This document shows positions 7,504 to 64,000 of a stretch of 64,000 bases of DNA, piece after piece. The stretch lies in contig CAYRXT010000001.1 in assembly GCA_964428315.1 (NCBI GenBank), positions 18,944 through 82,943 on the forward strand, written 5' to 3'. The DNA comes from an uncultured Planctomycetales bacterium. GTDB taxonomy: Bacteria > Omnitrophota > Gorgyraeia > Zapsychrales > CAYRXT01. How positions within the stretch are numbered: the first letter of the stretch is position 1; the number at the start of each line of letters is the position of its first letter. The translations under genes were made by a program, and so were the position numbers. The notes beneath the pieces were generated by a model. The model was not told where the DNA came from. It made no database searches and was given only the letters and a program-made list of their open reading frames with translations.

Positions 7504-7506
7504 GCC

Positions 7507-13086: not shown

Positions 13087-13120
13087 AGATTGGACATTTA
13101 TGTCCAATCTGATTGGACAT
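13087..13120. promoter_or_regulatory. perfect palindrome AGATTGGACAT-tt-ATGTCCAATCT plus an adjacent third GATTGGACAT copy; candidate operator site
   Basis: Read directly from the sequence. The same (A/T)TGTCCA(A/T)T motif is paired at 101-130 and 2041-2073. Confidence 0.4.
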
Positions 13121-13667
13121 AAATAGCCCCCCTCCCGTAGTCCGTTCTTCTATTTACACCTTATAGGATTATGTTTTTCTTCTAATGATGCCGGTATTTT
13201 CACCCGTGAAACAGTCTTTGTGCCGGGTGTCCCGGCCTCTGCCCGATTGCCTTAAGACCTCCTTAAGTCCCCCAGCGAACACATGAGCCAGTTTGCGGAT
13301 AAACCCGCAATAAACCGCGTCAGCAAAAAAAATCCTTCCAGAATGGAAAAGCGCGCATTTATAATGAGAGTTTTTTGACAAGAGTGTATAAAAATTTCAT
13401 CAGACATAAAATGACCGGAAAATTAAACAGTTGCGAAAAATCAACAGCTCGTACTAATGAAAATAAGAATTTCTCGACGATAAACAAGTTAAAAAAGTTG
13501 ATAATAAGTCGTGGAACCTGTTTGATAAGTTGCACATAAAAAGCGTCCCTGTGAAAGGTCTTGTTAAAAATCGGCATAGGTATGACTTAATAATTTTTAA
13601 ATTAGAAATAAAATTGTTTCACCAACGTAACTAATTGGTAAATATGATGTTAAAAAAATCCGGCCGC

Positions 13668-13696
13668 TTGCAGAAGCATGATTAATATGGTATAGT
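13668..13696 (+). promoter_or_regulatory. candidate sigma70 promoter TTGCAG-N17-TATAGT
   Basis: -35 at 13668-13673, -10 at 13691-13696, in an AT-rich spacer. Confidence 0.35.
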
Positions 13697-13702
13697 TATA
13701 AC

Positions 13703-13886
13703 GCAAGAACGGAGTCAAAGCATAGGCCGGCAACGGCTTATGGTAGCCCTGAACCCGGAGTGCTAAAGGGAAAGCCACGGAAATGATCACTTTTTTGCAG
13801 ACAAAAAAAGATTTTGTCTTCGCATTATATTTTAATAAGAATATAATGGGCTGCCATACAGGAATGACTGGCAGCCCTTTTTGTTT
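13703..13886 (+). ncRNA. candidate ~180-nt small RNA or terminated leader between the Tad locus and the giant gene
   Basis: Bounded by the promoter above and an intrinsic terminator. No ORF of 60 aa or more lies within it. I cannot assign a family by eye. Confidence 0.3.
13848..13886 (+). terminator. rho-independent terminator
   Basis: GGGCTGCCA (13848-13856), 12-nt loop, TGGCAGCCC (13869-13877), then TTTTTGTTT. Confidence 0.6.
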
Positions 13887-14347
13887 GCCGCCCGTCGGGA
13901 ACCTAGGACTGACGGCGGCAATAGATCATTCCCGGCACAATCATTAAAGAAGGCATCGGCCGGGACAAGTCCCGAGCGCAAGCGAGGGCGCAAAAAAAGC
14001 CACGGAGAAAGCATTGGTAATTTTTTCTACAAACAGCGCGCGCTGTTTTCAACCGCTTCATCTTTTGGACCCGGATAACAACTTCTGTTGTTGTCGGGCT
14101 CTCCGAACGCCATATGATCTTCCCCGCGGCTGGACGCAGATCCTGGTTCCGTTGTTTGAATTATTAAGAGGATGGACCGCGGTATGGCTGCCCGCCATTT
14201 TCACCGATCCGTACAGGCCGGCTCCGGTTCTTGCGAAAACCCATGCCGTCAGGCCGAACCGCGTGTTTTTCCCTCAGGGATCAGAAAAGAACAATCTCAA
14301 TGTCCAGACTGGATATTTATGGGCATTGAGACAGCAAAGGGAAATGG

Positions 14348-17300
14348 ATGAACGTTAAAGAAGACATATTCGGGCCCAGGCCCGAGCCCCCCGAGGAAGG
14401 GCAAAAGCCGTTCAAAAGCCGGTTCAAGGGCTGGATAAGGACGGTGGCCTTGGTCCTGGTGCTTGTCTTTGTCCCGGACCAGATCAGCTGGGCTCTGAAC
14501 TATAACCCGGCGGTCCTCTGGAAGGACCGGGCGGCCCATTATGTCAGTCCGGACGCCACCCGGGATGAAAAGATCTCGGCCGAGATCGCGGCCAGCGTGG
14601 AAAACCTCCTGCGCCAGGTCGCCTATAAAGAAGAGCCGCGGATCAGCCTGACCCTGACCGATTTGTCCATCACCGACCCTGAGCTGGCCAAGCGAGACCT
14701 CCACATCCAGTCCAAAGAGTTCTTCACCAACGCCCGGGTGCGCAGGTTCTATTCCTGGATACGGGCGAAAACAACCTATCCGCTCAACTGCGCCGTCTAC
14801 GCCCTGCGCGACCTTCTGACGCGGCACGATATCGAAGCGCCCCTCATGGACCTTTCCGTGGTCACCCTGATGGTCGACATCATGAACAACGTCATCCACC
14901 CCAACGACACCCGGCTGAAGACCTCGCTGTTCGCCCTCGCCAAGGTGGCCGAGGCCTACGGCCTGCGCTTCAGGCCCGCGCGCCTGCGGCCGGTCGAGAT
15001 CATCCATCTCGAAACGCCCTTCATCGCGAGCCTGGAAGACGAGCATTTCGTCATGGTCACGGCCTTTGACGAGGACAACGTCTTCTACACGGACATCGGC
15101 CGGGCCATGATGCTCAGCAAGGATGAATTTTCCGGAAAGCTCACCGGCTATGTCCTCGCCGATGAAGGTAAAATTAAGGAGAAGAAGATCGTCTCCGACG
15201 CCATGTCAGCCTTTGTCTGGGGTTCCAAGTGGCACAGCAACGTCGACCAGCTTCCCGGCATGACGAACACTCAATTCGCGATTACCGCTCTGGTCAAGAT
15301 TCTTAGCGCCCTTGCTGCCGGAGGCGCCCTAGGCGAGACCGCGGGCAAGCTCGCGGGCAGTGCGGAGTGGTTCGTCTTCAGCGAGGGCATTTCGGCTTTG
15401 GCGAATGGCATTACTACGGCCAAGATCCTCAGCGGGGAATGGAACGCGGAGGACGCCCGCGCCTTCGCTTCGGTGCTCGGCACGGCGTTGGTCGTGGGCC
15501 GCCTGGCCGCCGGTTCGTACCACGATTCCGTCATCAAGGACGGGTTCCAGTGGAAGACCTTTTTGGGCAACTTCGCCAAGGGAGGCGTCATGGGTCTCGG
15601 CAAGGGCGAACTGACCAAATGGATTACCGGCTTCTTGGAACGGCATATCAAGACCAAGGATCCGATCCTCAGAGAAGCTATAATAAGCACCGTCTCCTCC
15701 ATCGCTGCGTCTTTTGCCATGGCCGGCATGATCAAGGCGGCGGGCCTGAGCAAACAGTTTGGATTTGTACACCAGGAAGGAGAAAATACGACCGAAGGCG
15801 CCGGCAAGAGCCTGGTCAAGGTCGAGGCCATGGGCCTGGGCGAGATCCTGGAAACCGTCCTTATCAACGACGCCCTTCCCCTCCTGCTCACCGAGGCCGT
15901 GGGCACGGCCTTCCGTCTGGCGCATCGCGCCCAGGGCGGGGACCCCTTCAGCCGCGCCTCGCGCTCCATGGGCGCGCTGGGACGCTCGCTGGCCGCGGCG
16001 GCCTATAACGCCTACCTCCGTCCGGCCAACAAGATCGTGTCCAAGGACGGACAGGAAAAGGGGTCGATCAAGAGAGAAGGGGAGGATACGGTCGTGGTCA
16101 GGACCGAACGGGAACTGACCAAAGAGGAAGCGCAAAAGATTGAAAACGGCGAAGAGTTCCGCAAGACGCTTTTTGACAAAAAGGGCCGGGCCTACGCCTT
16201 CCTCGTGATCAAAGACGGCAAGGCCATGGTCAGCGAGGCGGTGTCCTGGGAAAAAGGTGAAAAAGAAGACGGCAGCACGCCCTCCGGCCTCCGTGACACG
16301 CGCTTCCTGACGGTTGAGGCGAAGCGGGATGAGGATAAAAAGAAAGAAAAGGAGCCTTACTCCAAAGGTGATGTGACCGTCGAAAAAAGGATAGACAGGG
16401 ATACCGGCGGCGTCCGGTATGTCCTAGTCAAAGATTTTACGTTCAAGGAGAACCCCGACGGTTCCCTGCCCTCCGGGTTCTGGCAGGAGTACACCCAGTT
16501 CGGCGCCTGGCTGAACGACGATTACCGCGGCGGCCTGAAAAACGTCATCGCGTCCCTCGGCACGGGGCTGACCCATTATCTCGTGTCCAAACAGCTTGAC
16601 GACATCGAGGCCAGGAACGTCGGCAAGGGCATGAACAAGGAAGAGTTCACGGCGGTCGCGTTTTTGACGACGATGTTCTCGGCCGGTTTCGCCGGGGCCC
16701 TGATCGACGAGATGGGCCTGGGGAGGGCCTCCGGCCTGCGGAAGATCGAGACCGTCAAGGTCGACGCGGACCGCGACGGGGAGGAAGAAAGCCGGCAGGT
16801 CTACGAGAAGGACGACGGAAACGGCAAAAAAGTCCGGGGCGTCCTCCTTACCACAAGGCGGGGCGTAAACGAAAAGACAGAATTTATTCCCGTCACGGAA
16901 GACGCCGAAACAGGCGAGGTCGCGCTGGCCGAATCCGGACGGGAAGAGGTTGACGACCTCAAAGACGCCGACAAGGACGGCACGCCCGACGGCTATTCCG
17001 AGGCGACGGTCCTCCTCACCGGCAGATCGGCCAGGGATTTCTTTGACAAATTTCTCCAGCTCTCCGCCCTCCAGCTGCAGGGCATGCTCCTCAACCGTTA
17101 CGTCGGCGTGGGTCTGAACCCCTTTAAAGACATGACCGCCTTCGGAAGCCCCGAGATGCGTTCCATGCAGAGCCCGTTCTTTTTCCGGTACATGAACAAC
17201 GTGACCAAGGTCCAGGAGGCCTCGGACGCGGCGGACTTCATCGTCCAGAAGGCCGGGCTGACCGACGACCTCCTCCTGCAGATGAAGGCCCGCAAGGAGC

Positions 17301-20300
17301 AGATGCGCGAGAAAAACGCGCTTCTCCCCGAAGATGAGAGGAAGTCGGAAAAGGAACTGCGCAAAGAACTGGCCTACGCCATGTACAACCAGTACAGCGT
17401 GGGAGGGGCCATGCTGAAATTTACCCTCAGCGCCCTGGACGCCGGCACGATCGACAACACGGTCGCCGGCCTGGAATACCTCTCTTCCCTTAAATATGTT
17501 CCGTCCGCCTTTCATGAATACTCCGGCTGGCAGCAGAGAGGCGTCGTGGACATCGCCCTGGACGAGGCCTGCGGCAGCGGCGACTGCGTGGCCTTCAGGG
17601 ACGGCAAAGGGCGGCTGTTTTCGGCGGACAGTGACAGTGACGAGGCGCGCAGGGCCAGGGAACAGGGCCGGATAGTGTCCGAGGATTTCAATAAAGACAG
17701 GCTGACCTTCGCCTGGTCCAAGAACGCCATCACCGGCGACACGACCATGCACATGATGGAAGGGGCCCGCTTCTTCGTGGGCAGCCGCAACTGGGAGGTG
17801 GGTTACGCCCGTCTCAAAAAAGACGAGCCCACCCAGCTGATACTCGACTTCGGCCAGCTGACACCTGCCGAACAGCTCCGGCTGGGGATGCTGGAGAGCA
17901 ACCTGGGCTGGCATTCGCAGAACATGGACGGCTCCTTTAACACGGCCAAACTGCTGACCGCGAACGGCCGGGTCATGGGATCCGAAGGCCCTGAACTGAA
18001 ACGAGGCTACACCTCCAAACTGGAAGAAAAAGACGGCGAAATGAAGATGGTCTACCGCAACGCCGTCGGCGAAGAGGTTGAAGCCGGCGAGGCCGTTGCC
18101 GACGATTATTCCTCCGCAGAACGGATGGAGGTCTTCACCAAGGGCAAGTCCGGTGTCCTCGGCGGTACCGTCAGCCGGGACATCCTCCTTGGCCAGGACA
18201 AGGCGAGCGTGTACGTTATGTACGAAAACCGGCGCAAGTCGTTCCTGGGGCTTGGCAACACGGCCCTGGGCAGCGCGCTGGGCATGACGCGCACCGACCG
18301 CCGCGTGGACGTGGAGTTCAACCGCCACGGCGATTACAACTTTGATGTGGAGGCCGATGTTTATGACATAAGCATGCCCGGGGGCGGCTACGCGGACAGG
18401 CGTGAAGAACGCCATACCGGCAACGTCCGGCTGGGCGTCACCATGTTCATCGGCGGTTCTCTGCGGGATAAAGAGGAGGGCGACTTCATCAACTCCTTCC
18501 GCACCATCGGCCTGCGCACCGACGGCGTGGACAGGGCCGATATCGTGGCCCAGCGCTTCAGCCACGCCGATGACGCGGACATGTCGAAATACTTCGTTGC
18601 CAGCCTGGATTATTTCGCCAACAAGAATGTGGATTTCATAAAGGCGCGCCTGCTGGAGACCTTGGCCGAAAGCCGCGGGATTTCGGCGGAAGGCCTGAAA
18701 GATGTCGTCCGCACGCCTGACCTGAAGGCCGGTTATACGCGCGCGGTCGATGGGACCGGCGACGAGCAGAAGCTGGTGTATTACAGCCTGGCGACCGGCG
18801 CCGAAGTGGAACGGGAAGAGGCCCTCAGGCCTGACGGCGGCAGTGTCGTGGCCGTGTACGACGACGGAAACGGCGGCGAAAGGCGGGTGGACATCACCCG
18901 GAACGACGATAAGACCGGCCGGCCGGAGGCCGGCGAGGCCATCGCGGACCGTGAGCACAGCCTCCTGGAAGAGAGGGACGTCCAGATCGCCCTTTCCCGT
19001 GAGGAGAACGGGGCGGTCAACCACGACCGGTTTCATATATTGTCCAATCTGAGCCGCCTTTCCGGGAACGTGGCGTCCAAAGAGCTGGTCCAGGCGGATT
19101 TTCATGTCGACGCCTTCGCCCGGGAACGCGGCAGGGCCCTGACGCCTCCGCTCAACGATAATGGTAAAGTCAGGGACGATGTGGAGATCCTTGGGGGCAA
19201 TACCTCTGCCCCCGTTTATGTGGACAAAAGAACGGGCGATTTCCTGACCGCCGAAGAGGCCGGCGTCACCGAAGACAGGGGCCTGTTCTTCCAGGAAATA
19301 AGGACCTACAGGAATCTGCCGTATATGGCCGGCATGGGCGGCGATGAGGCCGAACGGGAAAGGGCCGGCGCCCTTTCCGACGCGATGTATATCGAGACGG
19401 TTTACAGCATGCCCACCAGGGGCAGAAATACGACCCTGATCAAGCAGGACGAGCTGTCTTTCGGCATGGGGGACAGGGAGCAGGCTAAGAAATTCCTCGA
19501 CTTATACAAGAAGACGGAGGCCGCGAAGGGCGCTGACATCGGCGAATTCGGACACCTGGCCGGCGCCAAGGGCCGCATCGCCTTCCAGACCACGATATTC
19601 GACAAGGAGTTCACCGGCTCGAAATACGGCGAGATCAACGACAAGGTCCTCAGCGAGCTCAACGACATCAAGGGCGCGATCTTCGACTCCTACGCCGTCG
19701 CCGGAGGGGAAACCCTCGATAAGGGCCGCATGCTCTTCGGCGACCTGAAGGAAATGAAAGAGGTCACCCACCATGTCAGGGCGAATTTCGGTTTTGACAT
19801 GCACGAGATCAGGGCGCAGGACAGAGAACAGCTGGACAAGGCCGTGGCGCAGTTCGACCAGGGCGAGATCGATGAGATCACCATCAGCGGGTACACCGAC
19901 GAGGCCGGGTCCGTCGCCTACAACCTGGAGCTCGGCCAGAAACGGGCCGAGGCCATGAAGGCGTATCTCATCGAGAGGGGCGTGTCCGGAGAGAAGATCA
20001 AGACCGTGTCTCACGGTGAGAAGAAGGTCACGGTGACCGGCAAGGCGTACTCCAAAGAGGCGGGCCTGGTCGACCGCAAGTCCGAGTTCGAGTTCAAGAC
20101 GCTTGAAGAAGGGGAGACCTCGGGCCGTTCGTACGTCAATATCGACAACATCCGCGCGGACGGCCGGATCGAGGGGAACGTCGGCGTCGACGGCTTCCTG
20201 GTCCACGGCGGTGAGGGCATCTCCAACGACACCCTGATCCTGGCGCCCACCGGCGGCATGGAACTGCAGAGCCGCGCGGCCTTTGTCACCACCTTTAACG

Positions 20301-47300: not shown

Positions 47301-50300
47301 ATGATTCTCCGCTCTGTTCTTTCGATGAGGAGACCGTCGACGGGGTTGCAAAGCACATACGGGATCTGATAAATGAAGAATACGGTGACATCGTCCGCGG
47401 ACGGGTTGAAGAGAGATCAGGGTATAAAAGCAGAGAGGATGCCGCGGATCAGCAGAGTTCATCGGAGGCCGCCGAAACCGTTGATAAAGGAGAAAAGGCT
47501 GAAGGCGGAACTGGGGCTGCGGAGAACCAGTCCGGAGAGAAAAAGGACGAGAAGACAGAGGAGGAACCACAGTCAGCGCCGAGCGATGGGGACACAGGGA
47601 CCCGGGCCGCGGATCAGACTGACGATCACCCCAGCGAAGGGGCAGGTTCGGGCACGGCAGAGGAAACAAAAACAGAGGATTCAAAGGCAGACGCCAAACC
47701 GCGTTCGTTCCGTGAGAAGGTTGTCCGCTTCTTCAGAGGCAACGGCGAGAAGGCGCGCGAGGTAAGCCGTCAAGTCAAAAAAGACGCCGAAGATAAGCTG
47801 AAAAAACTTTACGCTAACCATGATAGTAATGAAAAGAAACGATTGAGAGGGAAGACTCTCAGCGAAAGCCGCGGGCGCGAGGTCTATGGGCCGAAGGGGC
47901 TGGGACGCCTGTTCGATATTTTGACCAGGACGCGGTATTTCCGTATCAATCTGCCCTTTATCGGCTATTTTTACTGGGGTTACGACGGCAGGGGCTTTTA
48001 CGCGAACAAGGAGATCAGGGACGAGGAAGGCAGCACCGCCACTTTCCCGCTCCCCTCCGTCGTGGTGGCAACCGGGGGCGGGCTGACCTATTTCGACTTG
48101 ACGGACCTGGCTCCGGCTGTCGCCGGGTTTTTCATCGGCGGACCGGCCGGCGCCGCGGCCGGCCTGTGGATGGCGGCGAGCAGTCTTTTTCAGCACGAGG
48201 TCAAGGGCCCGGTGGTCGGGTTTGTTTCGGGCCACGCGCGGACCGCGGCCATGTACGGGCGCAAGGCTTCGTCCACGGCGATTTCTCTCTTCGGCGGCGT
48301 CAACAAGGTCAACCTTGACGGGCTGGCGGTGTGGCGGAAACTGCGCGTTATGGCGGCCGGCCCCATGGCTAACCTCCTGGGCGCGGGCGTGGCGGTCTTT
48401 CTTGGCGCCCTTCTGGGCGGTCTGGGATTCGAATCCCTGGCCGGCGTCCTGAGCGGCGCGTCGGATTTCAGCTCTTTCGGCGCCATGATAGCCAGCATGG
48501 GACAGAACATCGCCGGGCTGGTGCAGTCCGTGGGCAGCGGGCTGTGGTTCTCGCTCGATTTTTACCAGAACATCAACCTCCTTACCCTGAACCTGTTCCT
48601 GGCCCTGTTCAACCTCCTGCCGTTCGGGTTTACCGACGGCGGACGCATGCTGAGTGAAGGCCTTACCGCGTTGCTGAAGTCCACGTTGTACAGGAACGAC
48701 GCTTACGGCGCGGAGCGCGCGGCCAAGACCGTGATGAAATGGTGGACACGCTCCGCGGGCTTGATCGGGGTCGCCGCCCTCGCGGTCAGCGGGATAGACT
48801 GGATCGCGGCGTTCAGGACCGGAGGCGGCGTGCTCCTGGGCGGGACCCTTGTTCTCGGGACCGCCGGTTATCTGGCCGGGAAGATGATCAAAAAGTTGAC
48901 CAACGCCCGGGTTCCGGCTGCCGTGAGATACCTTAGAAACGGCATGCTGATAGCGGCCGGTTCGGTTGTCGCGCTTCATTTTGGGGCGATGCTGTTCAGC
49001 CACGCGGCGGCGTCCGCGGCCGGGAGCGTCGCGCAAGGCCGGCTGCCGGCCTCGGTTTTCCTGAGCGCCGCGGCGATAGCCCTGATCGCGAAGATCATCA
49101 AGAAAGACAGCGCCATTGGCCGCGTGGTCAGGCCCATGACGACACGCGTTTTCTGGAGCGGCCTGGTCATGGGTATTCTGGTCATAGGGGGCAACATGGG
49201 GCTTGTCTCGCTCGGGGCCGGGTCTGGGGCGGCCGCGGGACTCAAGGTCTTTGAGGGCGTTATGCAGAATTTGAACGGCCTGGCGCCGGCGATGCTGAAC
49301 GGCGCGGCCTCCTTCCTCGGGCTGACGGCCCTGGCGCCGTTCGCGGGTCATGTCGCTGGACACTGGCTGTTTGCCTCCGGGGCCCTGAGGGTCCTCGTGG
49401 TCGGCCTGGTGTCCGAATTCATGGACAACGATCCCTACAGCCACGGCAATAACACCGATGACGAATATCAGGACGGTGAACTTCACGGTAGTCTTTTCCC
49501 CAATGTTTTCAATATAGGGACATCTCTGCTCAGGACAGCGGCTGATATAACCGGAGAAGACGGCGATCCTCATTGGCAGCAGGTGAGCGTGACCGATCCC
49601 GGGCTGTCAGATTTTGGACCGGGACCGGATGAAGACGGTTATGTGCCTGACGCCGTCGGCATGCCCTTGCCGCCGGCTCCGGCCGCGGGTCCTTTGATCC
49701 CGGGGACGCAGACGCCGTTATATTTCTTTGAGCCGTCTTCTTCGACGTTTCCGCTGATCTTCGGCGCGACGACTCCGGGCCCTGACGGAATGAGAATGAC
49801 AGTGGCCTCGGCTTCGCGCGGGGACGCCGATCCCTTCCAGGCGGCCACGACCGACAGGGGCCCGTTTGCCAATGTCAATTCCGCCGCGCCGGTCGAACCG
49901 GTGCCGCCGAACCCCGGCTCCGGTAATAACAACCCGGGCGGTCCGGGAGGCGGGAATCCTCACGCGGTGATCGCCTTTGTCAATAGTCAGGCAGGCGACC
50001 GTGCCGCTGTGGCACATTCCAGTGTTACCGATCCGAATATCTCAGGTTATCGTTGGACTCTATCGACATCTAGCAATGTCAAAGCGTCACATTATATGTC
50101 AGGCAACACAAGTCCCACGCCGTTTCGCGCTGCCGCCCTTTCCACAAAGGGTCAGGCAGGGAACGCAGTAGAGTGGATCATTGATCAAACAGGAAGAGCA
50201 GTACGTGTAACAGTACACGCAGTTGCTGGTCTGATTTTGCCGACGCCGGTGTACGCGGCTGAGGTGAAAGACAGTGAAGTCTCTAACACGCTTATCGGCA

Positions 50301-53300
50301 AAGGGTTGTATGGATTCGGCCCGGCGTCGGTCGCGGGTGATGTGACAGGTGTGCGAGGTGTGCGCACGCGGAACAGCAGTGCCACAAGTGAAAACGGTCC
50401 AGCCATCCGGGTTACATCGGGCGTTGACGAAGCCCCGATGGGCCGAAAAGGCGGTATCCCGAGTGTCTATACCGGAAACGGTACAGGCGCGGAGGCGTTC
50501 TTTGGTGGTGTCAGTTTTGCAGGTAACAACGGTCAAGATCGGCCTGTGACAACGGCGACGGTACCTGTCGTCCACGGCTGGAACGGATTGACCGGCGGGG
50601 TTACCGGTGGTTCGGGAAGTGCGTCCGGTCGGAACGCGGGGAGATCCGCGGGACAATCGGGCCGGAACCTGAGAGATGTTCCAGAAAATCTCAGGTTCTC
50701 TGGTGTTTCCTCCACAGGCGGCCAAGCCACGGACTACCGCTATAACAGCGGCAGAGAAAGCCGGGAATCCGGGACAGGGACAACAGGCATCCCCACGGAC
50801 GATGCCGGGGACGGCGAAGCCGGTCCCGAAGGGTCCAGGGCCACAGTCACGGGAGGATCGCGAGGAAAGGGTGTTACCCGAGGTTCGATTCGTGTGTCCG
50901 GTACCGAAACGGTCCATGAGACCGGAATGGCTGCCGGCGAAGCCTTTAATGCGAATCGGCCCCGCACTGAAGACAGTACCGTCCGGCATGACGGACCAAA
51001 TGAAGTTGTAAATAACCCTGTGAGCCGTTTAGGAAACAGAAGAAACGGTCTGCAGGAATTTTCTGTATTCCCCACAGACGTCATTTCCCTCTACAGCGGG
51101 TTCGATTTCTCCCGTATTTTCCAACGGATATTCAACTCAATCAAACTGTCGTTGCGGGCCCTGAAAGGGCCAAGCGATGACACAAGCCACGGAGGTGCGC
51201 GATGGTTTACCCAAAGCAGAACTTTACGGACATGGATCTCTCGCACGCGGTCGAGTTTCCGGAATGCGATGTCTCGGTTAACACGGGCCGTGAGCGTTCG
51301 ACAGGACGAACGCGGATCTTCCTCATCTTCCATCACACGGGCCGGGCGTTCGCCCGTTACCGCAACGCCTGGTCGCCTCTGGCGAACGATGACGCGCGTC
51401 TTGTCCTGGCCCTCGCGGCGAGCTCAGATATCCCGCGCTATCGCGCTTCCGGCAGTCCTGATAGCCTTATTCTCCAGTAATGAAGCCGTGGCGGCCGGCG
51501 GGCTTCCGGCCGAAAACCTTCATTTGACCCCGGCCGGCCTGGCGGTGTTCCTGGCCCTGGGCGCGGTCGCGCTGGGGATCTACCTCTATCATGCCGCCAA
51601 TAATGAAAAGGCGCCGGGCCTGTCCGGAACCGGTCTGATCATGCGTGAATGGCTTTACGGCGGGGCAGATCTCCTGGCGCTTGTCGGCAGTGACCCTGAA
51701 ACGGCCCGGGACGTCCTGAAGACGCTCGAGGCGCTTACCGGCGAACCGGGCGCGGCAGGAAAGAATTTCCATGATAAAGAGGTTTATTTGAGGGCCCGGG
51801 ACACGTTCTTCGCTGATCTGGATTCCCGGGGCGTTACCTGTGAAGAATTGGAGCGTCTGACCGCCTCTCTCAGGGAAACAGCGGGCCTGGCCGGTGAGGC
51901 CCGAGAGGAGGAGACCGCTGAGGTTGTCCGTTACGCGCGAGAGGCGCGGACCGGCGTTTCCATGGCGAAATGGATCGGATGGGCGGCGGTCGCCGGGAGC
52001 GTCATCGGCCTGCTCGGCCGCATTGTCCTGGCCGGCCCGGTTGACGCCGGCATCCTCTGGCTGTCCGGCAGTCTGACCGCGGCCGGGGCGGCCATCCTTG
52101 TTGCCGACCTGACTGCCGGGCGCTGGGAAGGCATCAGGGATTCCCTGGAGAGCATTACGGACCGGTTGACAACCGGAGACGCCCGATTCTTCCCGCGCAT
52201 CCGCTATTCGAGGAAGACCCTGGCCCTGGTCATCGGCCTCATGATGGCCGTGCTTGCGGCCGGGATGGTCGGGGACGCCCTCCAGTCTCAGGAGCCATGG
52301 ACAACCACGGACTCCGGATACGTGAATGACGCCGCCGCCGGGACCGCGGGCGGCAGCGCGGCAGGCCCCGCCCCCGAGAACGGAGAGGGCAGGGAACCGC
52401 CGGATCCCGAAAAGACGCTCTCCCGGAACGCGGACGAACATCCCTTGCGGCGGGACCAGGACGTTGTTTTCGCCTCCATGGTGGATTGCGAGCTGGCGGT
52501 TAAACTCGCCGTGAAGTCCGTGACATGGGTTAAGGATCTGGTGGAGAAACTTCCGTTTGTTGATAACCCAGGGCGCGCGACGAGGTCTTATGAATCATGG
52601 ATCATTCCGGAAACGCCCGGGTCATGGCTCCGGGTTCAAAATGTGCACGGCAATACCGTTTATAACGCGAACCTCAACGGGATTGATTCATTCCAGTGGG
52701 ACGGCCGGGACAACCAGGACCGTGTTTTGCCCCAGGGCGTCTATCCCGCCCGGATTCGGGCCGGAAACAAGGAGTTCGGCTTTAAGTACCTTATCTCCGG
52801 AGATGATTTGGCAAGGGCCGCTTACGCCGTAGCCAAGAAAGGGACGATCAAGGCCTTCATCCCTGACCTCTTTGCGCAGGGTTTTATAGCGCCGGTAAGC
52901 ATGGCCGTTTCACCCGAGATACTCGTCTTGCTGGAAATGGAGAGGCAAGCCGCAAAGAAGAATTCCTTGGAAGATTCGCTTGCGCGGTCCCGGATGAGGG
53001 ACCTCTCGCCGTACGGTTACATTTACGACATGATGGGCCGGGAAAACCTCGAGCCGCGGGATATCCAGAGGATCGCCTTTCATTTCAGCGAACTTATGGA
53101 GAGCGAGGACGTGGAAGGCTTCAAGACAGCCGCGGACCTCTTCATGCCACGACATCAGGCGATCCTGAAGACGGAAGGGCATCGGCGGCTCTTCTGGCGT
53201 TTCTGCGACATTAACGCGGAGTTCCTGAATTGGATGGCCTGGAGAGAGGACCTTATGGTGAGCAGCGCATTCTTCCTCAAAGGCGCCGGTGAATGGCTGG

Positions 53301-56300
53301 CCGTGATTGAAGAAAACGATGAATCTGAAACGGCCGCGCGCCGTCTGGGACTGCCCATCGAAGAGAGCCGCAGTGTCGGACCGGGGATGACAGAAGATTT
53401 AACAGGGATGAAAATGGCCCAGGCCTCGACGGGCCGATACCTGGTGGCGGCCAACCTTTACAGGGCCCTCCCCATCTTGACAAGGAAGCAGATAAACCGG
53501 TTGGCCGGCGGCGTTATCGACCATGTGCGCTTTGTCCTGACCGGAGAAAACGCGCAAGGCGTCATTGAACTTTATCCGGTCCAGGCGCCCGAACCCTGGA
53601 CCTACGCCCTGGCGAAGGTCCCGTCAAATTCTTTCTTCGGTGATGCCAGATACCGCGATATACATACAGACTGCGTCACGCACGAAGCCGAGCATTTGTT
53701 CAAATATAACCGGATGGACATGCCGCTTTACATGAACACGGAGGTGGCTTTCAACGGCGGGTACATCCGGCTGGGGCCGGACGTCGTGCTTATGCGCGCG
53801 GTAGCGGTTTCCTTGTATAACCACTTCACCGGAAAGGACATGGTCGAGCCCGGGACAGCCTGGCAGGGGAGGCCGTGGCTCCAGTATCCGCATTTTGAGG
53901 AAGGCGGCTGGGCCGACTGGCAGGGGAAATGGGGCGGCTGCGTCGATTCACTGAGAAATTATATTGCGCGGAAAGCGGAGCGTGAAATCGTTTCCGACCG
54001 CAACTCTGAGATCGAAGAGGCCATCGCGGCGTACAGCCGCGGCCGGGATCTTTACCGCCTTTCCATGGGATACAGGGAATTCCTGGAGGAAAAATACGGT
54101 CCGGCGGCCGCGCGGTTCGGCGCGGACGTCTTCTTTGAATGGGTTAGCCGTTTCCCGGTCCTGGACGCGGACGTCGACACCTTGAGCCAGAAAGGCGTTT
54201 ACGGGCTGAGCCCGGCCGGGGCGGCGGTGGCCGCGGAGGCGACCGCGCGTTCCTATGCGTCGGACATCAGGGATATCTTCGTTGATGTCTGGAAGGGGAT
54301 ACGGCTTTGGAGCCATCAGGGCGTGACACCCGAGCAGGCCGCCGGCCGCGCGCGTTCGGCCTTTTACCGGACCTATGTGCCGGTGATCGTGGAAACCGTC
54401 AGAAGTATGAACGTCCCGCTGAGGGCCGAAGGGGCTCAGCTGGATTCTCTCGTCGGAGTTGTTATCGAAAAATTGGAAGATTTCGCGTATACGGGCGGCG
54501 ATATGTTTGACCCGGCTGTGCCGATGGATATTGCCGACGCGGCGGTTGTCGCGGCGGTGCTTGACGAAAATATCGGGCACAACTACACCGTGGACAACGG
54601 AGGTTTCAGTGTCATGGCCGATTCGCTGGACGAGGCTGAAGGAAAACAAGTGGCGATGAGCGCCGCCGGCGAGGCCGTTTTCTGGCAGGAGGACCCCGTC
54701 CCCGGCGAGCCGGGCCCGCTGCCCGTTGTCCCGGGGCGGCAGAACTTTATCGTCAGTTCGGTTTTCCTGACGGCAAACTGGATCCGGTCAATGCTGTCTC
54801 AAGACGCGCGGGCCCTTGACAAGACCTCCTCCGCGGCCGTGGAGGGCTTCTTTTACACGCCGCTTCCCGACGCCGATAATGTCGTCGAGGATACGGCGAT
54901 GACGGCGCTGTTCCGGGACAAGGTCTCGGAGATGGGCTGGCCGCACCCGTATCTGTTCCGCGCGATCCCGGTGTTTTACGTGGACAGCCGGACGGCGGAT
55001 TCCCTCGGGGTGACATGGGTCGGGCCCTACGAAGACTTCACGTCAAATGGATTCTCCCCGGAGGCGGACCCGGACCAGGACAGGGTTGTTTGGGCGCCGG
55101 TGGTGGACGGGATGTGGGGCGGACCGGGTCCGGCTCCGGAGTACCAGGACTATTACGACCCGGACAACCCGGATTACGACATGGCCGAGGATTATTCGGT
55201 GAGCCTGGCCGATACGGTTACCGGCGAGATGTGGGACTTCTGGTATTTCCGGGTGGATGTCCACGGCAATTATTACGCCTCGGCAGTGAAGTACTGGGGG
55301 CCGGGCAGCTGGCGGGGAGACGGGATCAGCACCTGTCAATATCCGGGGATCCGGGGCGCCGGGACACCGCTGGGCGCCGGACTGCTGACGCAGGAAGAGA
55401 TCCTGCGGGCGCGCGGAGGAGACATGGACGCGGTCACCCACAAGCTGATTTTCGCCTGGCCCTATTCCAGCAGTGAGATGAGATGGCCGGCGACACGCTC
55501 CGACGGGTGGAGGAGCGCGGGCGAGGGGATACCGGAAGGAACACTCTTACAGCTTGACCCGGGACATGATTATGAGCCGTATATCCGCCATTTGTCTTCC
55601 GAAGAAGACAGGAACGTGGCCCTCGCGCTGATCCGCGCGCTGAAGACATACGGCGCGGTCTGCGTGGACAACGGCGGAGGGTTCGGGATCATCGTCGAGC
55701 AGGTGGACGGCACGCACGCGAAACTGAACCCGGACTGCCTGGCGGGGATCAACCTGGACAAGTTCCTGGTCGTGGCGCCGGAGAGTTTCCCCGCGGGCCT
55801 GGCACTGGAGCGGAGGATTGATCCGGAGGATCCCCTTGAGGGATATAAAGAGGTCGGTATTGAGCTGATTGTCAACAGGGACGATCCGGCGGCCGCCTCG
55901 AAGGTCCGCGCCGAGTTCCGTTCGCTGGACGGCGAAAGCCTGGTGGAAGACAACAGGCACTTGATGCGGATGAACCTGGCGGCGGGTGAATTCGCGTGGC
56001 AGGACATGGGAGACGGCCGGGCGCGGATCGCCTTCGGGGTGGAGACTTCCAGCCGGGGCGGGGCGGAGAGCCTCATGGCCGACACGAGATACATCATGCG
56101 CCTGACCGTGGAGGACGGGCGGGGCGCCGAGAGCTATCCGCTGATCCATTCCTTCCGGTCGCCGGCCGTGGCGACGGACGTGGTCCCGGCCGCGGACGGT
56201 GACGGCGAAGATGGAGGAAATCTCCCGCAAAACTACCCGAACCCGTTCAATGCGGCCACGTCGGTGTGGTATGAGGTGCCGGAGGCCGGGCGCGTGGAGC

Positions 56301-59300
56301 TTAAGGTGTACACGGTCTCCGGGCGGGAAGTGAGGACGCTGGTGGATGAGTACCGTGAGGCCGGGCAGTACAGCGTGGTGTGGGACGGGCGGGATGATTC
56401 CGGCAACAGCGCCGCCGCCGGCGTTTACCTGTACGTGGTGAGGCTTGACGGCAGGGTCATCGCGTCGAAGAGGATGACGCGGATGGCGGCGCAGAGGGAC
56501 GGCCGGCAGGGATGGCTGGGAAGCCTCAAGGACCTCTTCAGCATCTCTGAGGCGAGCGCGGCGGTCGAAAATCGGTACGCGGCGGCGCGGATGAAGGCTG
56601 GACCTTTCGCCCTCGAGCCGGCCGAAGCGGCCGCGCGGGCGGTCAACACGCCGGAGCCCGCCGGTCAAAACGCTGAAGAAGGCCGCGTCAGCCTGACGCT
56701 GGGGGATGTTTACGAATATATTGACATGCTCAGGGATTACAGTGACGGGCAGATACAGGGATATTTTGACATGGTCCCGGCGCTTCAGACGGCGGAGGTA
56801 TGGGAGGATTACGCGGTCATGGTCCGGATCCTGCTCCGGGAAAAAGGCGTTGCCGGGGACCCCCTGCGGTATGAACTCTTTGCCAGCCGGCCGGAAGGTC
56901 CCGGGACCGAAGTCGTGCCGGCGGTCTCCGAAGAGGAGGCCATGGATATCCTGACCGGGAAGAAATACGCCTACGACACCTTGGCCGTCAAAAGACTGTA
57001 CAAAGAAGTTATCGAGGAGCATCAAAGCAGGATGGTCCGCGACCCCGGGCTTTCGCGGCTGGAGGTCTTCCTCATGCGGTCCCAAAACATCACGCCGGCC
57101 GAGGGGCCGGAGGCGCGTTTTGGGCGCTTACAACGGACACACGCGGACGATGAGTTTGTCTCGGCCAATAGGCGTATAACCCTTTATGGTAAGGACATTT
57201 TCCACCCGACATACATCCTGGACATAAGGGGAACCGAAGTTGTGCTTAATGTGAGCCTGAAACCGGTGTTCCAGACCGCCGCGGCCGAACAACTCCTTGG
57301 GAAAATTGATGCCCGCGGCGCCGAAACCCAGGCGCTGGATATGGTGGACACACTGATGATATATATGGAAACCGCCTGCCGGGCGGAAGAGGCCGGGGAC
57401 AGGGAAAGCGCCCTGATCAACTGGAAACACGCGCTGTGGCGCGCGGAACAACTGCAGAGACTGCCCCAACCATCCTTCAGGTGGTGGTATTACGAATTCG
57501 CTGAGGACCTTGTCGATTCTATCAGGCAGTATATCCGCCGTCATTATGAGGCGCCGGGCCGGGGTATTTGGGATCGGCCCGGAGCCGTCCTCCACGGTTG
57601 TTTAAAAGGAAAGACGGGGCCGGCGGCCGGTTCGATCGTGATGAGCCTGGCGCCGCTTATGGCGCGCGCGGCCGATCAATTGGCCGGCGCCTTTGCCCAA
57701 AAGCGGCCATCGCGGGAGCCATCTATTAAAGATATTAATGGAATTATTAAGAAAATAGACGGATTAAAGGCAAGCGTGACCAGGGAAATAGCATCTCGAG
57801 AAGATGAAAGGAAGGTTAAGGATGCGAGGAAGAAGATTTATGCGTTGATATCGAAACTATACATTTACGCGTCAGAAAGCAATATCGGTATCGAAGGTTT
57901 TAAGAAGGAGGCCTGGAAGCTGATCGACCTCGCGGAGTGGGGCAACATTAACGTCAGGATGAAAGCCAGAGATCAATTACGAAGTATCTTGAACAAGAGG
58001 ATCCCGTCCATGAAAGAAGATCCTCGGCATAAAGATCATTTGGATGAAATAAAAAAGATCGAGAAGGAAATGAAGAGAATTATTGATGAATTTGATAATC
58101 GAGGCAAGAAGAGCCCCCGCGGATGTGCCCCGGCGCCTTCCATGGTCAAGACGGTCCTGCGGGCGGCGATGAATGGAGTTCAGTATATCCTTGCCGGCCC
58201 CGAGCTCCAGGCGGCGGAGGCCGCTCATGCCGCCGGGGACAAGTTCTGGCAGGATGTGGCCGCGCAGGGAGAATACAACCAGGCGGACATCGACGAAATG
58301 GCGCGGGTCACCGACAGCCTGTGGCTCGCCGCGGACCTCCCCTCGCCGGATGACGTGGAACAGGACTTGGTGCCGGCCCTGAAGACGGTCTCGACCGCGG
58401 AAGATTCCCTGGAACTGGCCCGGTCGTTCCTCTCGGCATGGGAAGTGGAAAAATTCAGGTTTCAAGACGCAAGGCAGCATGTCCTTTTCTCGCGGATCTT
58501 CGCCGCCCCGCTGGCCGCCGCTGACAGTATGCGGAGGGTTTTGAGCGGAGACCGCGGGACAGACAGGATAGAAGATGTCCTCGGCGAAGGCTGTGCTCTG
58601 GGCAGGCCTTACGCCGGGGCCGTCCTGTCCCGTATTTTTGAAGAGACGGCTGTTGATGTGCTGGGGATGGATTTGCCGGGGCATGTCTGCGTCTTTGTTG
58701 CCCTGAACACGGAGTACGGGTTTATTTATGACCCTTCATCGCTGACAACAAGCCGGGTCTTCCGTCTGGCGCGGTACACGGAGAAGGCGGGAGAGACCTA
58801 TTACTTCAAGGAGGCGTTCTACACCGAGGTCATGCCCGAAGGGTGGGCACCTGACAGGGATATATACACGGAGTTCCGGCTGTTATCCGTTGAGAAGTTC
58901 GCGGCAAAGATTCTGTTCAATATTGGCACTTACTATCTTGACCTTGATGCATTCTCAGCAGCGGCGGATTATTACAGACGAGCGCTGGCCGTGGATTCGA
59001 CGGACGCGGACGTCCTTAACAATTTGGGTAACGCTTATTTCAATCTGGGCGAATACGGGGCCGCGGCCGAACAGTACACGGCGGCGCTGACCTATAATCC
59101 CGAGAGCATTGAAAGCCGCAAATATCTGGCCCTGACCCTTGCTGAGCAAGGCAAAAAGACGGAGGCCATAATCAATCTTAAGGCATACCTGGGCGAACGG
59201 CCCGACGATTATGCAATGATGTTTCAATTGGCCCGTATGCATACGGCGAAGATTTGGATGATTTTGGGGACTTTTTTGGCCGCTTGTATCGTGGTCCTGG

Positions 59301-62300
59301 GAAGAAAACTCGGCGGACGGAACAAGGGCCGCGGCGACGGGAGCCAGGACCGTAAGGCGGGGGCGCCGGATAACGGGCGAAAGGGAGAAGACACTCATCT
59401 CAAAGCCGGGATTGAGATTGAGGGGCCGGCCGCGCGGATCATCCGGACTGTCCGCGGGTGGATGAGGAAGCTGGTTTTCAGGCGGTATGCTTCGGACACT
59501 GTTAAGGCCGCGCGCGAGAGGGCGCCTCCTGTCCGGAAGATATTCTCCCGCCTTGCTGCTTATTTTACTCAATCCCAAAGGACAAATTCCGCATCACAAG
59601 CCAATGACCATATCGAATTTTTAAATCCCAAACGGTTTCGGGCTTTGACATTTTTGACGTTCCTGACGGCCTTCTTCTTCAGCAGTGACCTGCTGGCGGC
59701 CGGGAACGCGGCGGCGCAGGAGGCCGCGCGGTCTTCCGGCCTGGAAGGCCTGGTAATCCTGCTGGCGCTGGGCGCGCTCGCGCTGGGGATGTACTGGTAT
59801 CACGCGGCAAGAGATGAAGAAGAGCCGGGCCTCTCCGATACCGGCGAAATCATGAGCCGCTGGCTTTACCAAGGGGAAGACCTCCTCGCGCTTGTGGACG
59901 GCGATCCCGACACCGCCGCGGAAGTCCTCAAGGTCCTCGAGGTGCTGACCGACCTGACCGGATTGAGGGGCGCGAAAGATCCCAAACTTAAAGCCGTTTT
60001 TGAAAACGGCCGTGACCAGTTCATGATTGCTCTGGACCGGCGGGGTCTCGGGCCGGAAGACCTGGAGCCGGTCATGGCGTCTCTCAAGACGTCAGCCGGC
60101 AAGGCCGCGCGGACTTTGCGTAATGAAGAATCCGTTGAACCCGCCGCGCGTAAGGATGAGGTAAGGCAACCCGTAGACCCCGGCGAATTTTCTCTGGCGA
60201 AATGGCTGGGCGGCGCCGTGGCCGCCGCCGGCCTCGTCGGACTGCTCGGCCGGCTGGCCCTGGCCGGAACGGCGGAAGCCGGCATCCTCTGGCTGGCCGG
60301 GGGCATAATTGTGGCCGGGGCGGCCACAATTCTCCTGGACCTGATTGTCCCGCGGTGGGATGACTTCGCGGAGGGCCTGAAGCGGATGAACGATCCGGAG
60401 TGCCGGCCGGAGCCGGTCCGGGGCGCGAGCCCGATGAAGCATTTCTGGCGCTGGACCGGCATCATCGTCCCGGTCCTCGCCGCGGCCGCGTTCCTGGCGG
60501 GCGTGATTTCGGTCCCCGCCGCCTTTGTCTCCGCGTTTTTCGGGCTGACGGCGCTGTTCGTCAGCTTCGGCTACGGCCGCGAAGGCGGTTCCTACATGAG
60601 CGGCGTGCGGCATTCCAGGGTGTTCCGGTTCGGCATGGCCCTGATGGCCGGCCTGCTCGTGATCGGGGTGTTCGCGGGCGGGGCCGACGCGCAGGACATG
60701 GGGCGGGTCGTCCAGGTCGACTACGACCGCGACGGGTTCGACGACATATCGGTGAGGCTGCCCGAGAGGGCCGGGCTCCACAGCCTCGCCGGCAAGGCCC
60801 CGGAAAAGAGCGTCTCCGAGCTGGAAGAGTTCTTTGCCGGGAACCCCGGTGTCATCGCGATGGTCCGCGAGGACCTCGCCCGGGACAGCCTGAAGCGGAC
60901 GATCCGCGATTCGCTCGACACCGAGGACTTGTACCGGGGCACGCTGGATTCGCTGGCGGCCGCGAAGACCGAAGAACTGGCCAAGTACAACCCCGGCACG
61001 GACCTCGGGGCCGACGCCGCGCTGGCCAGGAAGATGCGCGGCATCGTGCTCGACGAAGAGGCCGAGCTCCGCGCGCGCGAGAGGATCTCCCGCGACCCCG
61101 AGGCCGCGGCCGCTGTCGAGGTCAACGACGAGGCAATCAGCGAGGCGATTAAGCGGACCGCGGCCGCCGTGGACCTGCGCCACGTCTGGCCCGTCCGCGC
61201 CGAAAAGCACGGCCTGCCCGTCAACGACCTCTGGATGGCCTACGCGATCCTGGGCGGCAACTTCCCCGACATGACCGGGGACGAGATCAGCGCCACGGTC
61301 TATCGCCTGTTGAAAGAAAACGACGATTTCGGCGCCGCGTTCACGGATTTCCTGGAGAAGAAAAAGGCCGGCGCGGCCGCGGACGAAGAAGAGGCCGCCC
61401 TCAAGGCCCTCGAGGTCACCTTCGCCGACAACCCTGATATCATCCCGTCCATCGTCCGGACCTGGAACGAGCGCCGGGAATTGCTGGAAACCTATTTCTC
61501 GGACCTCGGCGCCTTCGGCAAGTTCACCCGGGCCGTGATCATGCAGGAGAGCGGGTTCGGCACCTACGCGACGAGCCACAGGTTCGACAGCTCCGGCAGG
61601 AAGATCCCGCTGGCCAAGGGCCTGATGCAGATCATAGACGCGACCTATGCGGACCAGAGCGGGAAGCTGGGGCTCGGTCCGGACGTTTACCACCGTCTCG
61701 ACAACGTCCGGGCCGGTACCGATTATTACGCGGATCGACTCAGGGATTTCCGGGATATCGAAATGGCCCTGGCCGCGTACAATTACAGAGCTTATAAGGT
61801 CGCGGCAGCTATTGCCGAAGCCAAAGGCATTTTGCTGACTGTCGCGAAGGAGAGTTTTACAGATTTGATAGCCGGAGGAAATATTGACGCTTTTCTGGAC
61901 GAGAACAGGGATTCCTTTAGAGAGTCTCCTGAAGAGATCAAGGCCGCGGCCGAACATCTGTCTGCCGATATGGCCGGGTTAAATGCGCTGCTGGGCATGA
62001 CGGCGTCTGATGCAAAGCGCGATAAGGTCACCAGGAAGCTCGCGGCGCCCAGGGTCTTGGAGATGATCGCCGAGGGCTCGCTGAAACCCAGTTTTGGGGA
62101 GACCGTTTCTCTGCTTCCCTCCGAGACCCAGAATTACGTGCCCAGCATCCTCCACATGTACGGCCGTGCCGTCGAGTACGTGGAGGCCAAAACCAGCGGC
62201 AGGCCGGCCGCCGTCAAGGCGCGGCCGGGAGCGCCGGATTACAGCAAATATATTCCGACAGAAGAGAGCCGGACTTACGACCCCGCCCTCGAGATGAGGG

Positions 62301-64000: not shown

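Follow-up and report, generated by a model that had tools for sequence, protein, structure and literature searches.

A 49.6-kb open reading frame with a conserved C39 head, probably the 5′ part of a giant membrane-anchored mosaic protein gene of Candidatus Omnitrophota

A 64,000-nucleotide stretch of contig CAYRXT010000001.1 (assembly GCA_964428315.1; hereafter the window, numbered from its first letter) is occupied on its + strand, from an ATG at 14348 to the last base, by one open reading frame (ORF) of 49,653 nt or 16,551 codons that reaches no stop. This 49.6-kb ORF is real, coding and in a single frame, and the gene is truncated by the window, its 3′ end lying beyond 64000 and the real gene being longer. 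On homology and synteny rather than marker phylogeny, the ORF is encoded by Candidatus Omnitrophota. Its product is best explained, overall, as a membrane-anchored, non-repetitive mosaic protein of this phylum, which is the probable reading, and the ORF itself is very probably the 5′ part of an Omnitrophota giant gene of the class opened by a C39 head ('Archaeovorin'). The gene was read up to codon 16,551, and C-terminal features and 3′ neighbours lie beyond the window.

An uninterrupted coding frame

The frame of ATG 14348 contains zero TAA, TAG or TGA codons from 14330 to 64000 (49,671 nt open) and is bounded upstream by TGA 14327-14329, the first ATG, GTG or TTG thereafter being ATG 14348; the runner-up open stretch on the + strand measures 3,123 nt. 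With a stop probability of 0.037 per codon from base composition, one stop is expected per ~27 codons, and the log10 probability of finding none in 16,557 codons is about -271 (chance ~1e-271). The GC content at third codon positions (GC3, 0.60-0.83) is far above that at second positions (GC2, 0.36-0.52) in 16 of 16 3-kb bins, and the other two + frames carry 20-55 stops per 1000 codons, so that the giant frame is coding throughout, without a hidden frameshift. An earlier note on this DNA had claimed a stop-free frame from 14348 to 64000, genuinely coding rather than open by chance and cut off by the window; a re-count found zero in-frame stops, the frame is open to the last base, and the GC3 periodicity, the chance probability and the in-frame domains along the whole length uphold its coding nature. 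An alternative genetic code was considered and is not needed, as the upstream genes end in TAA, TAG and TGA and the giant frame lacks all three.

The ORF is missing from the program-made ORF track because ORFs running off the source are not listed by the tool, which accounts for the earlier remark that it was hidden there. What is listed over the giant region is antisense ORFs and one off-frame + ORF of 250 aa. The long antisense ORFs all lie in one antisense frame; TTA, CTA and TCA make up 117 of the 16,551 sense codons, with 1-4 antisense stops per 1000 codons in GC3-rich bins. None of these ORFs has a Pfam match above threshold, and they were rejected as real genes and regarded as an artefact of codon bias, in agreement with the earlier view of them as a side effect of high-GC coding DNA. 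The most extreme genes are lost without notice from a standard ORF track if a contig ends inside them, and the same fragmentation bias is reported by the Omnitrophota literature for metagenome-assembled genomes (MAGs).

The 5′ end of the gene is clean and independently assembled. Contig 981 (37,249 bp) of the Logan assembly of SRR7048225 matches window 1-21929 exactly (0 mismatches), and the Logan gene call on it leaves the giant gene open, at 7,244 aa, running off the contig end; a literature search on the SRA runs yielded no paper. The composition of the translation is ordinary for a soluble or membrane protein, with A, G, L, E, V and R leading. Cysteine is very scarce at 25 residues in 16,551 aa (0.15%); C148, invariant in the C39 head, is one of the 25, and 11 are concentrated in aa 12865-14966.

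A conserved head and an orphan body

The head spans ~300 aa in the alignment of homologues, in which a K/R-rich N-terminus leads into one transmembrane (TM) helix (FKGWIRAVALV...P.QISWAFNYNPAVLW) and then into a C39 domain. Cys148 (in 'LNC', 14789-14791) and His233 (in 'EHFV', 15044-15046) are invariant in 7 of 7 sequences, and Pfam PF03412 (Peptidase_C39) matches aa 191-270 with 32.8 bits against a cut-off of 22; the relatives' match to this family begins at profile position 12-13, over the LNC motif. The AlphaFold2 (AF2) model of the head has a pLDDT of 80.6, and its top Foldseek matches in the PDB are LahT150 (6mpz), PCAT1, ComA (3k8u) and the C39-like domain of HlyB (3zua), with a TM-score to the target of ~0.7 and a probability of 1.0; the top 19 PDB matches are all C39 or C39-like domains, with E down to 2.6e-6. 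As modelled, the domain is a papain-like C39 fold with conserved catalytic-type Cys and His. It shares with PCAT1, ComA, LahT and HlyB the fold and the expected positions of Cys and His, but here the C39 domain is not fused to an ABC transporter and instead sits behind the single TM helix that opens the giant: Pfam and NCBIfam detect no ABC transporter domains after it, and the NCBIfam match of the head is a local one to the peptidase part of TIGR03796. By the positive-inside rule, the C39 domain may be periplasmic rather than cytoplasmic.

The search with the first 1,200 aa returned only six homologues among 5.8 billion clustered proteins, at ≤43% identity, and all six are partial C39-domain proteins from Candidatus Omnitrophota MAGs. 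A search with the head alignment across one genome per GTDB species gave 14 loci (L004-L017), all in Omnitrophota MAGs, three of which carry the submitter's label 'uncultured Planctomycetales' and one of which is Ca. Zapsychrus exili. In 14 of 14 the head-opened ORF meets no stop before the available DNA ends, the longest reaching ~3,700 aa. Past the head, the bodies of the relatives are not alignable to the window protein except in L009, where the OmpA-like domain and another block recur in the same order; in the first ~3,630 aa of four relatives, C39 is the only Pfam domain. The Pfam-dark stretch aa 2900-4099 has four weak matches among 1.84 billion representative proteins (1.84e9), the best of them being a 5,479-aa fragment, itself from a very long protein, and the last 1000 aa have no match in the homologous-protein search. 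The pattern across the family, as aligned, is one of a conserved head and an orphan body, since only the head aligns, the dark stretch has four weak matches and the last 1,000 aa have none.

A block of ~130 aa within aa 3305-3462 (window ~24260-24733) recurs at 32% identity in the giant ORF of Ca. Zapsychrus exili (L009:20009-20386) and at 39% identity in a stand-alone 231-aa protein (P0008), which suggests a mobile domain; single-sequence AF2 modelling of aa 3290-3480, the region shared with L009 and P0008, gave an unusable pLDDT of 49. The window lineage is comparatively high-GC for this gene family.

Domain content and membrane segments of the giant

The domain map was drawn from Pfam and PDB sequence searches, with Pfam run on 1000-aa slices and reported down to E<0.1. 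Some 90% of the giant's residues have no Pfam match, and the recognisable domains are spread over the whole length in frame, as the earlier note had said (Table 1). Of the domains it had named, OmpA, two HATPase_c, two GGDEF, FlgD_ig, TPR and SLT are all found by Pfam, and the type IX secretion tail (CHU_C) falls short: a weak FlgD_ig/CHU_C-like beta domain at aa 12761-12807 is sub-threshold (CHU_C 19.7 bits against a cut-off of 27). The note's list lacks two domains, Peptidase_C39 at aa 191-270 and Peptidase_M50 at aa 11303-11448.

Table 1. Coordinates of the features in the 64,000-nt window, with the evidence for each
Feature	Position	Strand	Evidence
Seven small Flp/class-III-signal pilin-like genes, 53-125 aa	2901..5473	+	gene calls, motif; homologues upstream of relatives' giant ORFs
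Three genes (546 aa, 101 aa, 1040 aa), TadE/F/G-like pseudopilin candidates	5493..10629	+	N-termini; syntenic homologues
Eighth Flp-like pilin gene, 88 aa	10632..10898	+	gene call, motif, homologues
TadB-like platform protein, 286 aa	11069..11929	+	Pfam T2SSF 61.7 bits (cut-off 25.2)
TadC-like platform protein, 300 aa as called in Logan	11985..12887	+	Pfam T2SSF 50.7 bits (cut-off 25.2)
Non-coding spacer between TadC-like gene and giant ORF, 1,460 bp, 45% GC	12888..14347	.	AT-rich core, palindromes, hairpins
Giant ORF, first 16,551 codons	14348..64000	+	no stops, coding periodicity; Logan contig identical over window 1-21929
N-terminal membrane anchor, aa 28-46, WIRTVALVLVLVFV..., after K/R-rich stretch	14429..14485	+	conserved in all homologues; helix in AF2 model
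C39 (double-glycine peptidase) fold domain of head	14735..15172	+	Pfam, invariant columns, AF2, Foldseek
OmpA/Pal-like peptidoglycan-binding domain, aa 1802-1904	19751..20059	+	Pfam 59 bits; PDB Pal/P6, E 1e-13
Histidine-kinase-type ATPase module 1, aa 7023-7138	35414..35761	+	Pfam, PDB, motifs; paralogous to module 2
In-frame tandem duplication, 120 nt (40 aa), 95% identical	36028..36266	+	DNA repeat search
Histidine-kinase core 2 (DHp-like + HATPase_c), aa 7480-7693	36785..37426	+	Pfam; PDB FixL/CpxA/CckA cores; motifs
GGDEF domain 1, aa ~8196-8410	38933..39577	+	Pfam; PDB WspR/PleD; motifs
GGDEF domain 2, aa ~8496-8700	39833..40447	+	self-BLAST, Pfam, PDB, motifs
Peptidase_M50-like multi-pass membrane module	48251..49423	+	Pfam aa 11303-11448, 49.6 bits (cut-off 27.2); hydrophobic cluster aa 11334-11692
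Multi-pass hydrophobic module A, aa 12364-12864	51437..52939	+	hydrophobicity; paralogue of module B
FlgD Ig-like domain, aa 13980-14031	56285..56440	+	Pfam 40.9 bits (cut-off 27)
TPR repeats, aa 14853-14957	58904..59218	+	Pfam and PDB
Multi-pass hydrophobic module B, aa 14967-15443	59246..60676	+	hydrophobicity; paralogue of module A
SLT lytic-transglycosylase domain, aa 15728-15826	61529..61825	+	Pfam 45 bits (cut-off 21.3); motifs

Active-site and ligand-contact motifs are kept in most of these domains. The OmpA-like domain has the D and R of the GYTD...R motif that make the peptidoglycan contacts, and the SLT domain has all of its catalytic motifs (E-S, GLMQ and AYN). The two histidine kinase (HK) ATPase modules, which together score 119 bits for HATPase_c, both have intact G1 and G2 (GHG[LI]G) boxes, those of module 1 reading DNGPG and GHGLG. 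The two GGDEF domains score 195 bits together and are paralogues at 37% identity, each with an intact GGEEF active site and RxxD I-site, the first with an insertion of ~80 aa after the active site. The M50-like module has HEVKG...(11 aa)...GH at window 48194-48691 (aa 11283-11448), where site-2 proteases have HExxH, and by its sequence is possibly an inactive or non-canonical intramembrane protease. Isolated motifs also occur in Pfam-dark areas, namely a third GGEEF at aa 3132, HEIGH at aa 6565 and HEAEH at aa 13112.

The giant is non-repetitive. Chunked self-BLAST detected only four duplicated segments: aa 12411-12605 with 15148-15349 (modules A and B, 47% over ~200 aa), the GGDEF pair, the HK pair and one 70-aa block. 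The tandem duplication at 36028-36266, between the two HK-like modules, is the only near-exact, recent-looking repeat in the ORF.

Hydrophobic segments were identified by the Kyte-Doolittle scale and compared with shuffled sequences, giving 30 observed segments against 11.5±3.2 in the shuffles. The trustworthy hydrophobic regions are the N-terminal anchor and the clusters at aa 11334-11692, 12364-12864 and 14967-15443 only; robust TM segments are absent between aa ~790 and ~11,300.

Placement among the giant proteins of Omnitrophota

Kizina (2022) is reportedly among the works that describe this class of giant proteins. The class is now well documented in the phylum. Seymour et al. (2023, PMC10066038) found giant ORFs >20 kb in 77 of 116 Velamenicoccia species and in other Omnitrophota classes, poorly conserved and with few annotated domains, and found TadBC/RcpA in most Velamenicoccia; the giant of Velamenicoccus archaeovorus, with 39,678 aa and 42 TM helices, is expressed, its peptides being 3-fold higher in cells attached to archaeal prey. 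West-Roberts et al. (2023, bioRxiv 10.1101/2023.11.21.568195) reported 46 Omnitrophota genes >90 kb, encoding up to 85,804 aa, with an N-terminal C39 domain near signal peptides, many TM helices, GGDEF, TPR and SLT domains, a locus like a type II secretion system (T2SS) or Tad system with class-III-signal genes before the giant, and PilZ genes downstream. Nielsen & Lui (2026, bioRxiv 10.64898/2026.06.07.730766) collected 5,761 proteins of at least 10 thousand amino acids (kAA), up to 147,155 aa, and found at least one such protein in 93.8% of complete Omnitrophota genomes; 80% of the giant sequence clusters are singletons, the largest architecture cluster is PF03412 (C39), the TM density is described, and secretion or pilus genes (T2SS/Tad) flank 13 of the 14 biggest giants.

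Against the published size criteria of >20 kb (Seymour et al. 2023), ≥10 kAA (Nielsen & Lui 2026) and >30 kAA or >90 kb (the core set of West-Roberts et al.), the window gene exceeds the first two with a read length of 16,551 aa. It also has the further marks of the class, namely the phylum by homology, the TM and C39 head, the TM clusters and a Tad-type cassette upstream, and of the class's domain content it shows peptidases (C39 and M50-like), two GGDEF domains, TPR and SLT, with glycosyltransferase, methyltransferase, NUDIX and HEAT domains absent from the 16.5 kAA available. With the Archaeovorin type, whose type example is the 39,678-aa protein of V. archaeovorus LiM, it shares the N-terminal TM/signal and C39, the unannotated non-repetitive body, the TM helix clusters, the GGDEF, HATPase_c, TPR, SLT and peptidase modules, and the position after T2SS/Tad and class-III pilin genes. 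The type differs in having divergent SecA_DEAD or SecA preprotein-binding (in most full-length giants), glycosyltransferase, methyltransferase, NUDIX and HEAT domains, which the window part is without, no HEAT domain being among the Pfam matches of the 16.5 kAA available; SecA_DEAD, a frequent rather than universal feature of the class, could lie in the part of the gene beyond the window. Apart from short blocks (L009, P0007), no similarity of the body to other giants is detectable.

The locus is a further, sequence-unique example of a class documented since 2022-2023 and near-universal in the phylum, and one more member of the largest protein class known in prokaryotes. The earlier placement of the ORF with surface or membrane giants gains support from the Omnitrophota head homologues, their loci, the synteny and the domains; its statement that proteins of this size are very rare in bacteria is overstated, as giant genes are the rule in Candidatus Omnitrophota. 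Three findings go slightly beyond the papers: TadC, spacer and C39 head adjoin without exception wherever a related locus reaches far enough upstream; only the head is conserved; and the GC content of the window locus is unusually high for the group.

Points against this placement and alternative explanations

Several observations weigh against the account of the ORF as one intact Omnitrophota gene for a membrane-anchored giant. The independent assembly match is limited to window 1-21929, and 21,930-64,000 is without one; the bin at 32.3-38.3 kb is a codon-usage outlier with lower GC3; and the window has 58% GC against 34-50% in all 14 related loci. Chance would account for the isolated hydrophobic segments, for which reason the derivation of topology by TM parity was abandoned, and simple parity would make the OmpA-like domain cytoplasmic. 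The M50-like module keeps NxxPxxxxDG and lacks the canonical HExxH. No SecA family match at E<0.1 was obtained in any 1000-aa slice of the 16.5 kAA available, nor any glycosyltransferase, methyltransferase or NUDIX domain at the same level. In Archaeovorin loci, finally, PilZ and solute-binding, transporter and glycosyl hydrolase genes lie downstream, and the window ends before the gene's 3′ side.

The first of these points could be taken to mean that the ORF is an assembly artefact, a chimeric in-frame join of at least two fragments, possibly from different giant genes. The reach of the independent contig fits such a join, as does the fall of GC3 from ~0.8 to ~0.6 between 32.3 and 41.3 kb in the codon-usage outlier, and searches of GTDB representatives and JGI metagenomes did not recover the source contig; in the contigs of both, the last 1000 aa, searched for an extension past 64000, have no match. 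A DNA repeat search, however, detected no dispersed exact or near-exact repeats in the giant ORF that could seed a mis-join; frame and strand are kept over 49.6 kb with zero stops; each 6-kb bin and the upstream genes have correlated codon usage (r = 0.80-0.94); and in the relatives, too, the same head is normally followed by a giant ORF. The outlier bin takes in HK module 1 and part of module 2, and a mosaic origin is the simplest reading of the low-GC3 segment because it coincides with widely shared HK/GGDEF modules. Given these points, a chimera is very improbable. Across window 32348-41347 as a whole, GC3 is 0.60-0.66 against 0.73-0.83 on the flanks and codon usage correlates with the other bins at r 0.56-0.81; the overlap of this segment with the HK and GGDEF modules suggests mosaic acquisition or a different constraint.

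For the product, size alone would also be compatible with a repeat-built adhesin, an RTX-type substrate of a type I secretion system (T1SS) or a megasynthase of the nonribosomal peptide or polyketide type, and C39-like domains are also found in T1SS ABC exporters. The Chlorobium chlorochromatii 36,805-aa protein, SiiE, LapA and MpIBP are likewise of extreme length with a presumed surface role in cell-cell contact. Classical adhesins, however, consist of tandem Ig-like, cadherin or VCBS arrays and are usually T1SS substrates, whereas the window giant has unique sequence, enzymatic and signalling modules and multi-pass segments. The four internal duplications form no tandem domain arrays, the C39 domain sits on the giant itself and not on an ABC transporter, and Pfam finds no cadherin, Big, VCBS or RTX domains and no condensation, AMP-binding, KS, AT or PP-binding domains at E<0.1 in the 16.5 kAA. 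These proposals are refuted for the 16.5 kAA available, and their overall probability is close to negligible.

A polyprotein is a more serious contender, though still a doubtful one. Under this proposal one chain (or products of internal starts) would be cleaved by the C39 head, the M50-like module or both into many proteins that work separately, leaving no mature protein of 16.5 kAA or more. The C39 fold with its conserved Cys and His is the only part conserved across the relatives, the M50-like module is a second protease-like element inside the protein, and the mosaic of unrelated enzymatic modules looks like an operon fused in frame; the same possibility was raised by West-Roberts et al. 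(10.1101/2023.11.21.568195). Set against this, no cleavage sites are identifiable, the M50-like site is without HExxH, and the peptides detected for the V. archaeovorus giant are silent on its processing state (PMC10066038). Cleavage into many proteins would be compatible with, and not exclusive of, a membrane-anchored mosaic giant as the primary product.

It is also conceivable, if unlikely, that the product is mainly a membrane-tethered multi-enzyme or signalling scaffold on the cytoplasmic face, the TM-only 'multi-enzyme cluster' of Nielsen & Lui, and not a surface weapon. The HK-type ATPase and GGDEF modules need cytoplasmic ATP and GTP, robust TM segments are missing between aa ~790 and ~11,300, and 46% of Omnitrophota long proteins are predicted to be TM-only with their bulk on the cytoplasmic face (Nielsen & Lui 2026, 10.64898/2026.06.07.730766). 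The OmpA/Pal-like and SLT domains, on the other hand, have intact motifs and characterised homologues that all act outside the cytoplasm, the FlgD-Ig/CHU_C-like beta domains are also extracytoplasmic, and the locus adjoins a pilus or secretion cassette.

A possible mode of action can be outlined for the preferred reading of a membrane-anchored mosaic giant, its steps drawn from domain chemistry and the published case of Velamenicoccus archaeovorus. The chain would be anchored in the inner membrane and cross it repeatedly. The HK ATPase and GGDEF modules would be cytoplasmic, where cyclic di-GMP (c-di-GMP) made on a cue could act as an internal switch, and the OmpA-like, Ig-like, TPR and SLT modules would lie on the periplasmic or cell-surface side. 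There the OmpA-like and SLT domains could bind and cut a wall of the peptidoglycan type; this wall might belong to a host or prey cell, or to the cell itself, which would thereby open a passage for the machine. The adjoining Tad-like apparatus would give attachment or export, and processing of the giant, or of a partner, may fall to the C39 head and possibly to the M50-like module. A function of the giant in attack or attachment is plausible on these grounds, if somewhat short of probable. The intact SLT, OmpA-like and dual GGDEF domains lead to the predictions of peptidoglycan binding and cleavage outside the cell and of c-di-GMP synthesis inside. The Omnitrophota hosts of giants, in which giant genes are commonplace, are tiny predatory or episymbiotic bacteria, and the locus adds a data point to the existing question of how ultra-small episymbionts make, insert and use multi-megadalton membrane proteins.

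The upstream Tad/Flp-like cassette

The genes upstream of the giant ORF resemble the Tad/Flp type IVb pilus systems of Bdellovibrio-like predators and of Omnitrophota (Seymour et al. 2023) in their adjacent T2SSF genes, small G/XXXXEY pilins and larger pseudopilin-like proteins in the TadE/F/G position. Six of the first seven small genes encode a basic leader, [G/A]Q-x3-E[Y/F/H] and then a hydrophobic helix, the seventh (4371-4739) being without the leader as called. Counting the eighth small gene and two of the larger genes, 7 of 8 and 2, respectively, have [G/A][Q/S]xxxE[Y/F/H/L] followed by a hydrophobic helix; PF04021 (Class_IIIsignal) gives one faint match only, on one of the genes. The class-III-signal-like motif of the larger genes is found in the 546-aa and 101-aa proteins, and the 1040-aa protein has a hydrophobic N-terminus without it. 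These three proteins have no Pfam or NCBIfam match, and syntenic homologues of their genes are present in L004-L009, L011, L015 and L016. The 546-aa (5493-7133) and 1040-aa (7507-10629) proteins, syntenic across Omnitrophota relatives at 24-33% identity, are candidate giant pseudopilins or TadG-like components.

The TadB-like protein has homologues of 47-60% identity in 11 related loci. The TadC-like protein, for which the called start is ATG 11985 and the longest ORF starts at GTG 11952, has homologues of 50-57% identity in 12 of the 14 loci, less than 2.9 kb of DNA being available upstream in the remaining two; NCBIfam adds nothing on the T2SSF proteins beyond weak PilC/HofC-type matches. 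The order pilins, 546-aa, 101-aa and 1040-aa genes, pilin, TadB and TadC is conserved before the giant ORFs of the relatives. Unlike a Tad/Flp system, the window is without TadA/CpaF, RcpA, TadZ and TadV, and the giant gene occupies the place after tadC. No TadA/CpaF ATPase, RcpA secretin or TadV prepilin peptidase was found among the ORFs of window 1-14347 or in 1.2 kb further upstream (L003), and the GspD, GspE, RcpC and peptidyl-prolyl isomerase genes of published loci are not in the 14 kb upstream; the missing Tad components may be encoded elsewhere.

Because the head alone is strongly conserved and comes directly after TadB/TadC in all loci that extend far enough upstream, the TM-C39 head can be proposed as a dedicated module for loading and processing, linking a Tad-type machine to a giant 'payload' that is hypervariable and diversifies rapidly. 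The giant would then be a substrate or stator, and its HK-like and GGDEF modules would switch the apparatus via c-di-GMP on host touch. The proposal is speculative and quite unlikely as it stands. If true, 'conserved head, interchangeable multi-kAA body' would be a principle of secretion or processing and not a curiosity of gene length. The papers note the proximity of Tad genes and the C39 domain and do not establish a coupling of head and Tad (10.1101/2023.11.21.568195; 10.64898/2026.06.07.730766).

The spacer and other upstream sequences

In the relatives, 0.6-3.9 kb separate the TadC-like gene from the head. The spacer of the window could hold the promoter or operator of the giant gene. 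It has a perfect palindrome, GATTGGACATTTATGTCCAATC, at 13088-13109, followed by a repeated half-site, as well as a GC-rich hairpin with a T-run at 13848-13887 and a second hairpin at 13888-13920. A promoter and terminator scan of the spacer gave nothing above shuffled expectation, and neither the spacer nor the gap at 2021-2900 is conserved in the relatives by blastn or tblastx. Rfam and tRNA scans of the whole window gave nothing, and the spacer candidates of a permissive Rfam scan (trpB motif and ctRNA, E 0.1-1) were rejected as sub-threshold.

At the left end of the window, a 621-aa ORF (155-2020) has an N-terminal helix-turn-helix with a weak match to HTH_Tnp_Tc3_2 (E 7e-4, below the cut-off). 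Of all the upstream genes it alone lacks a homologue throughout the 14 related loci, and it is possibly an inserted transposase-like or regulatory gene. The 880-bp gap that follows it, at 2021-2900, is of low GC.

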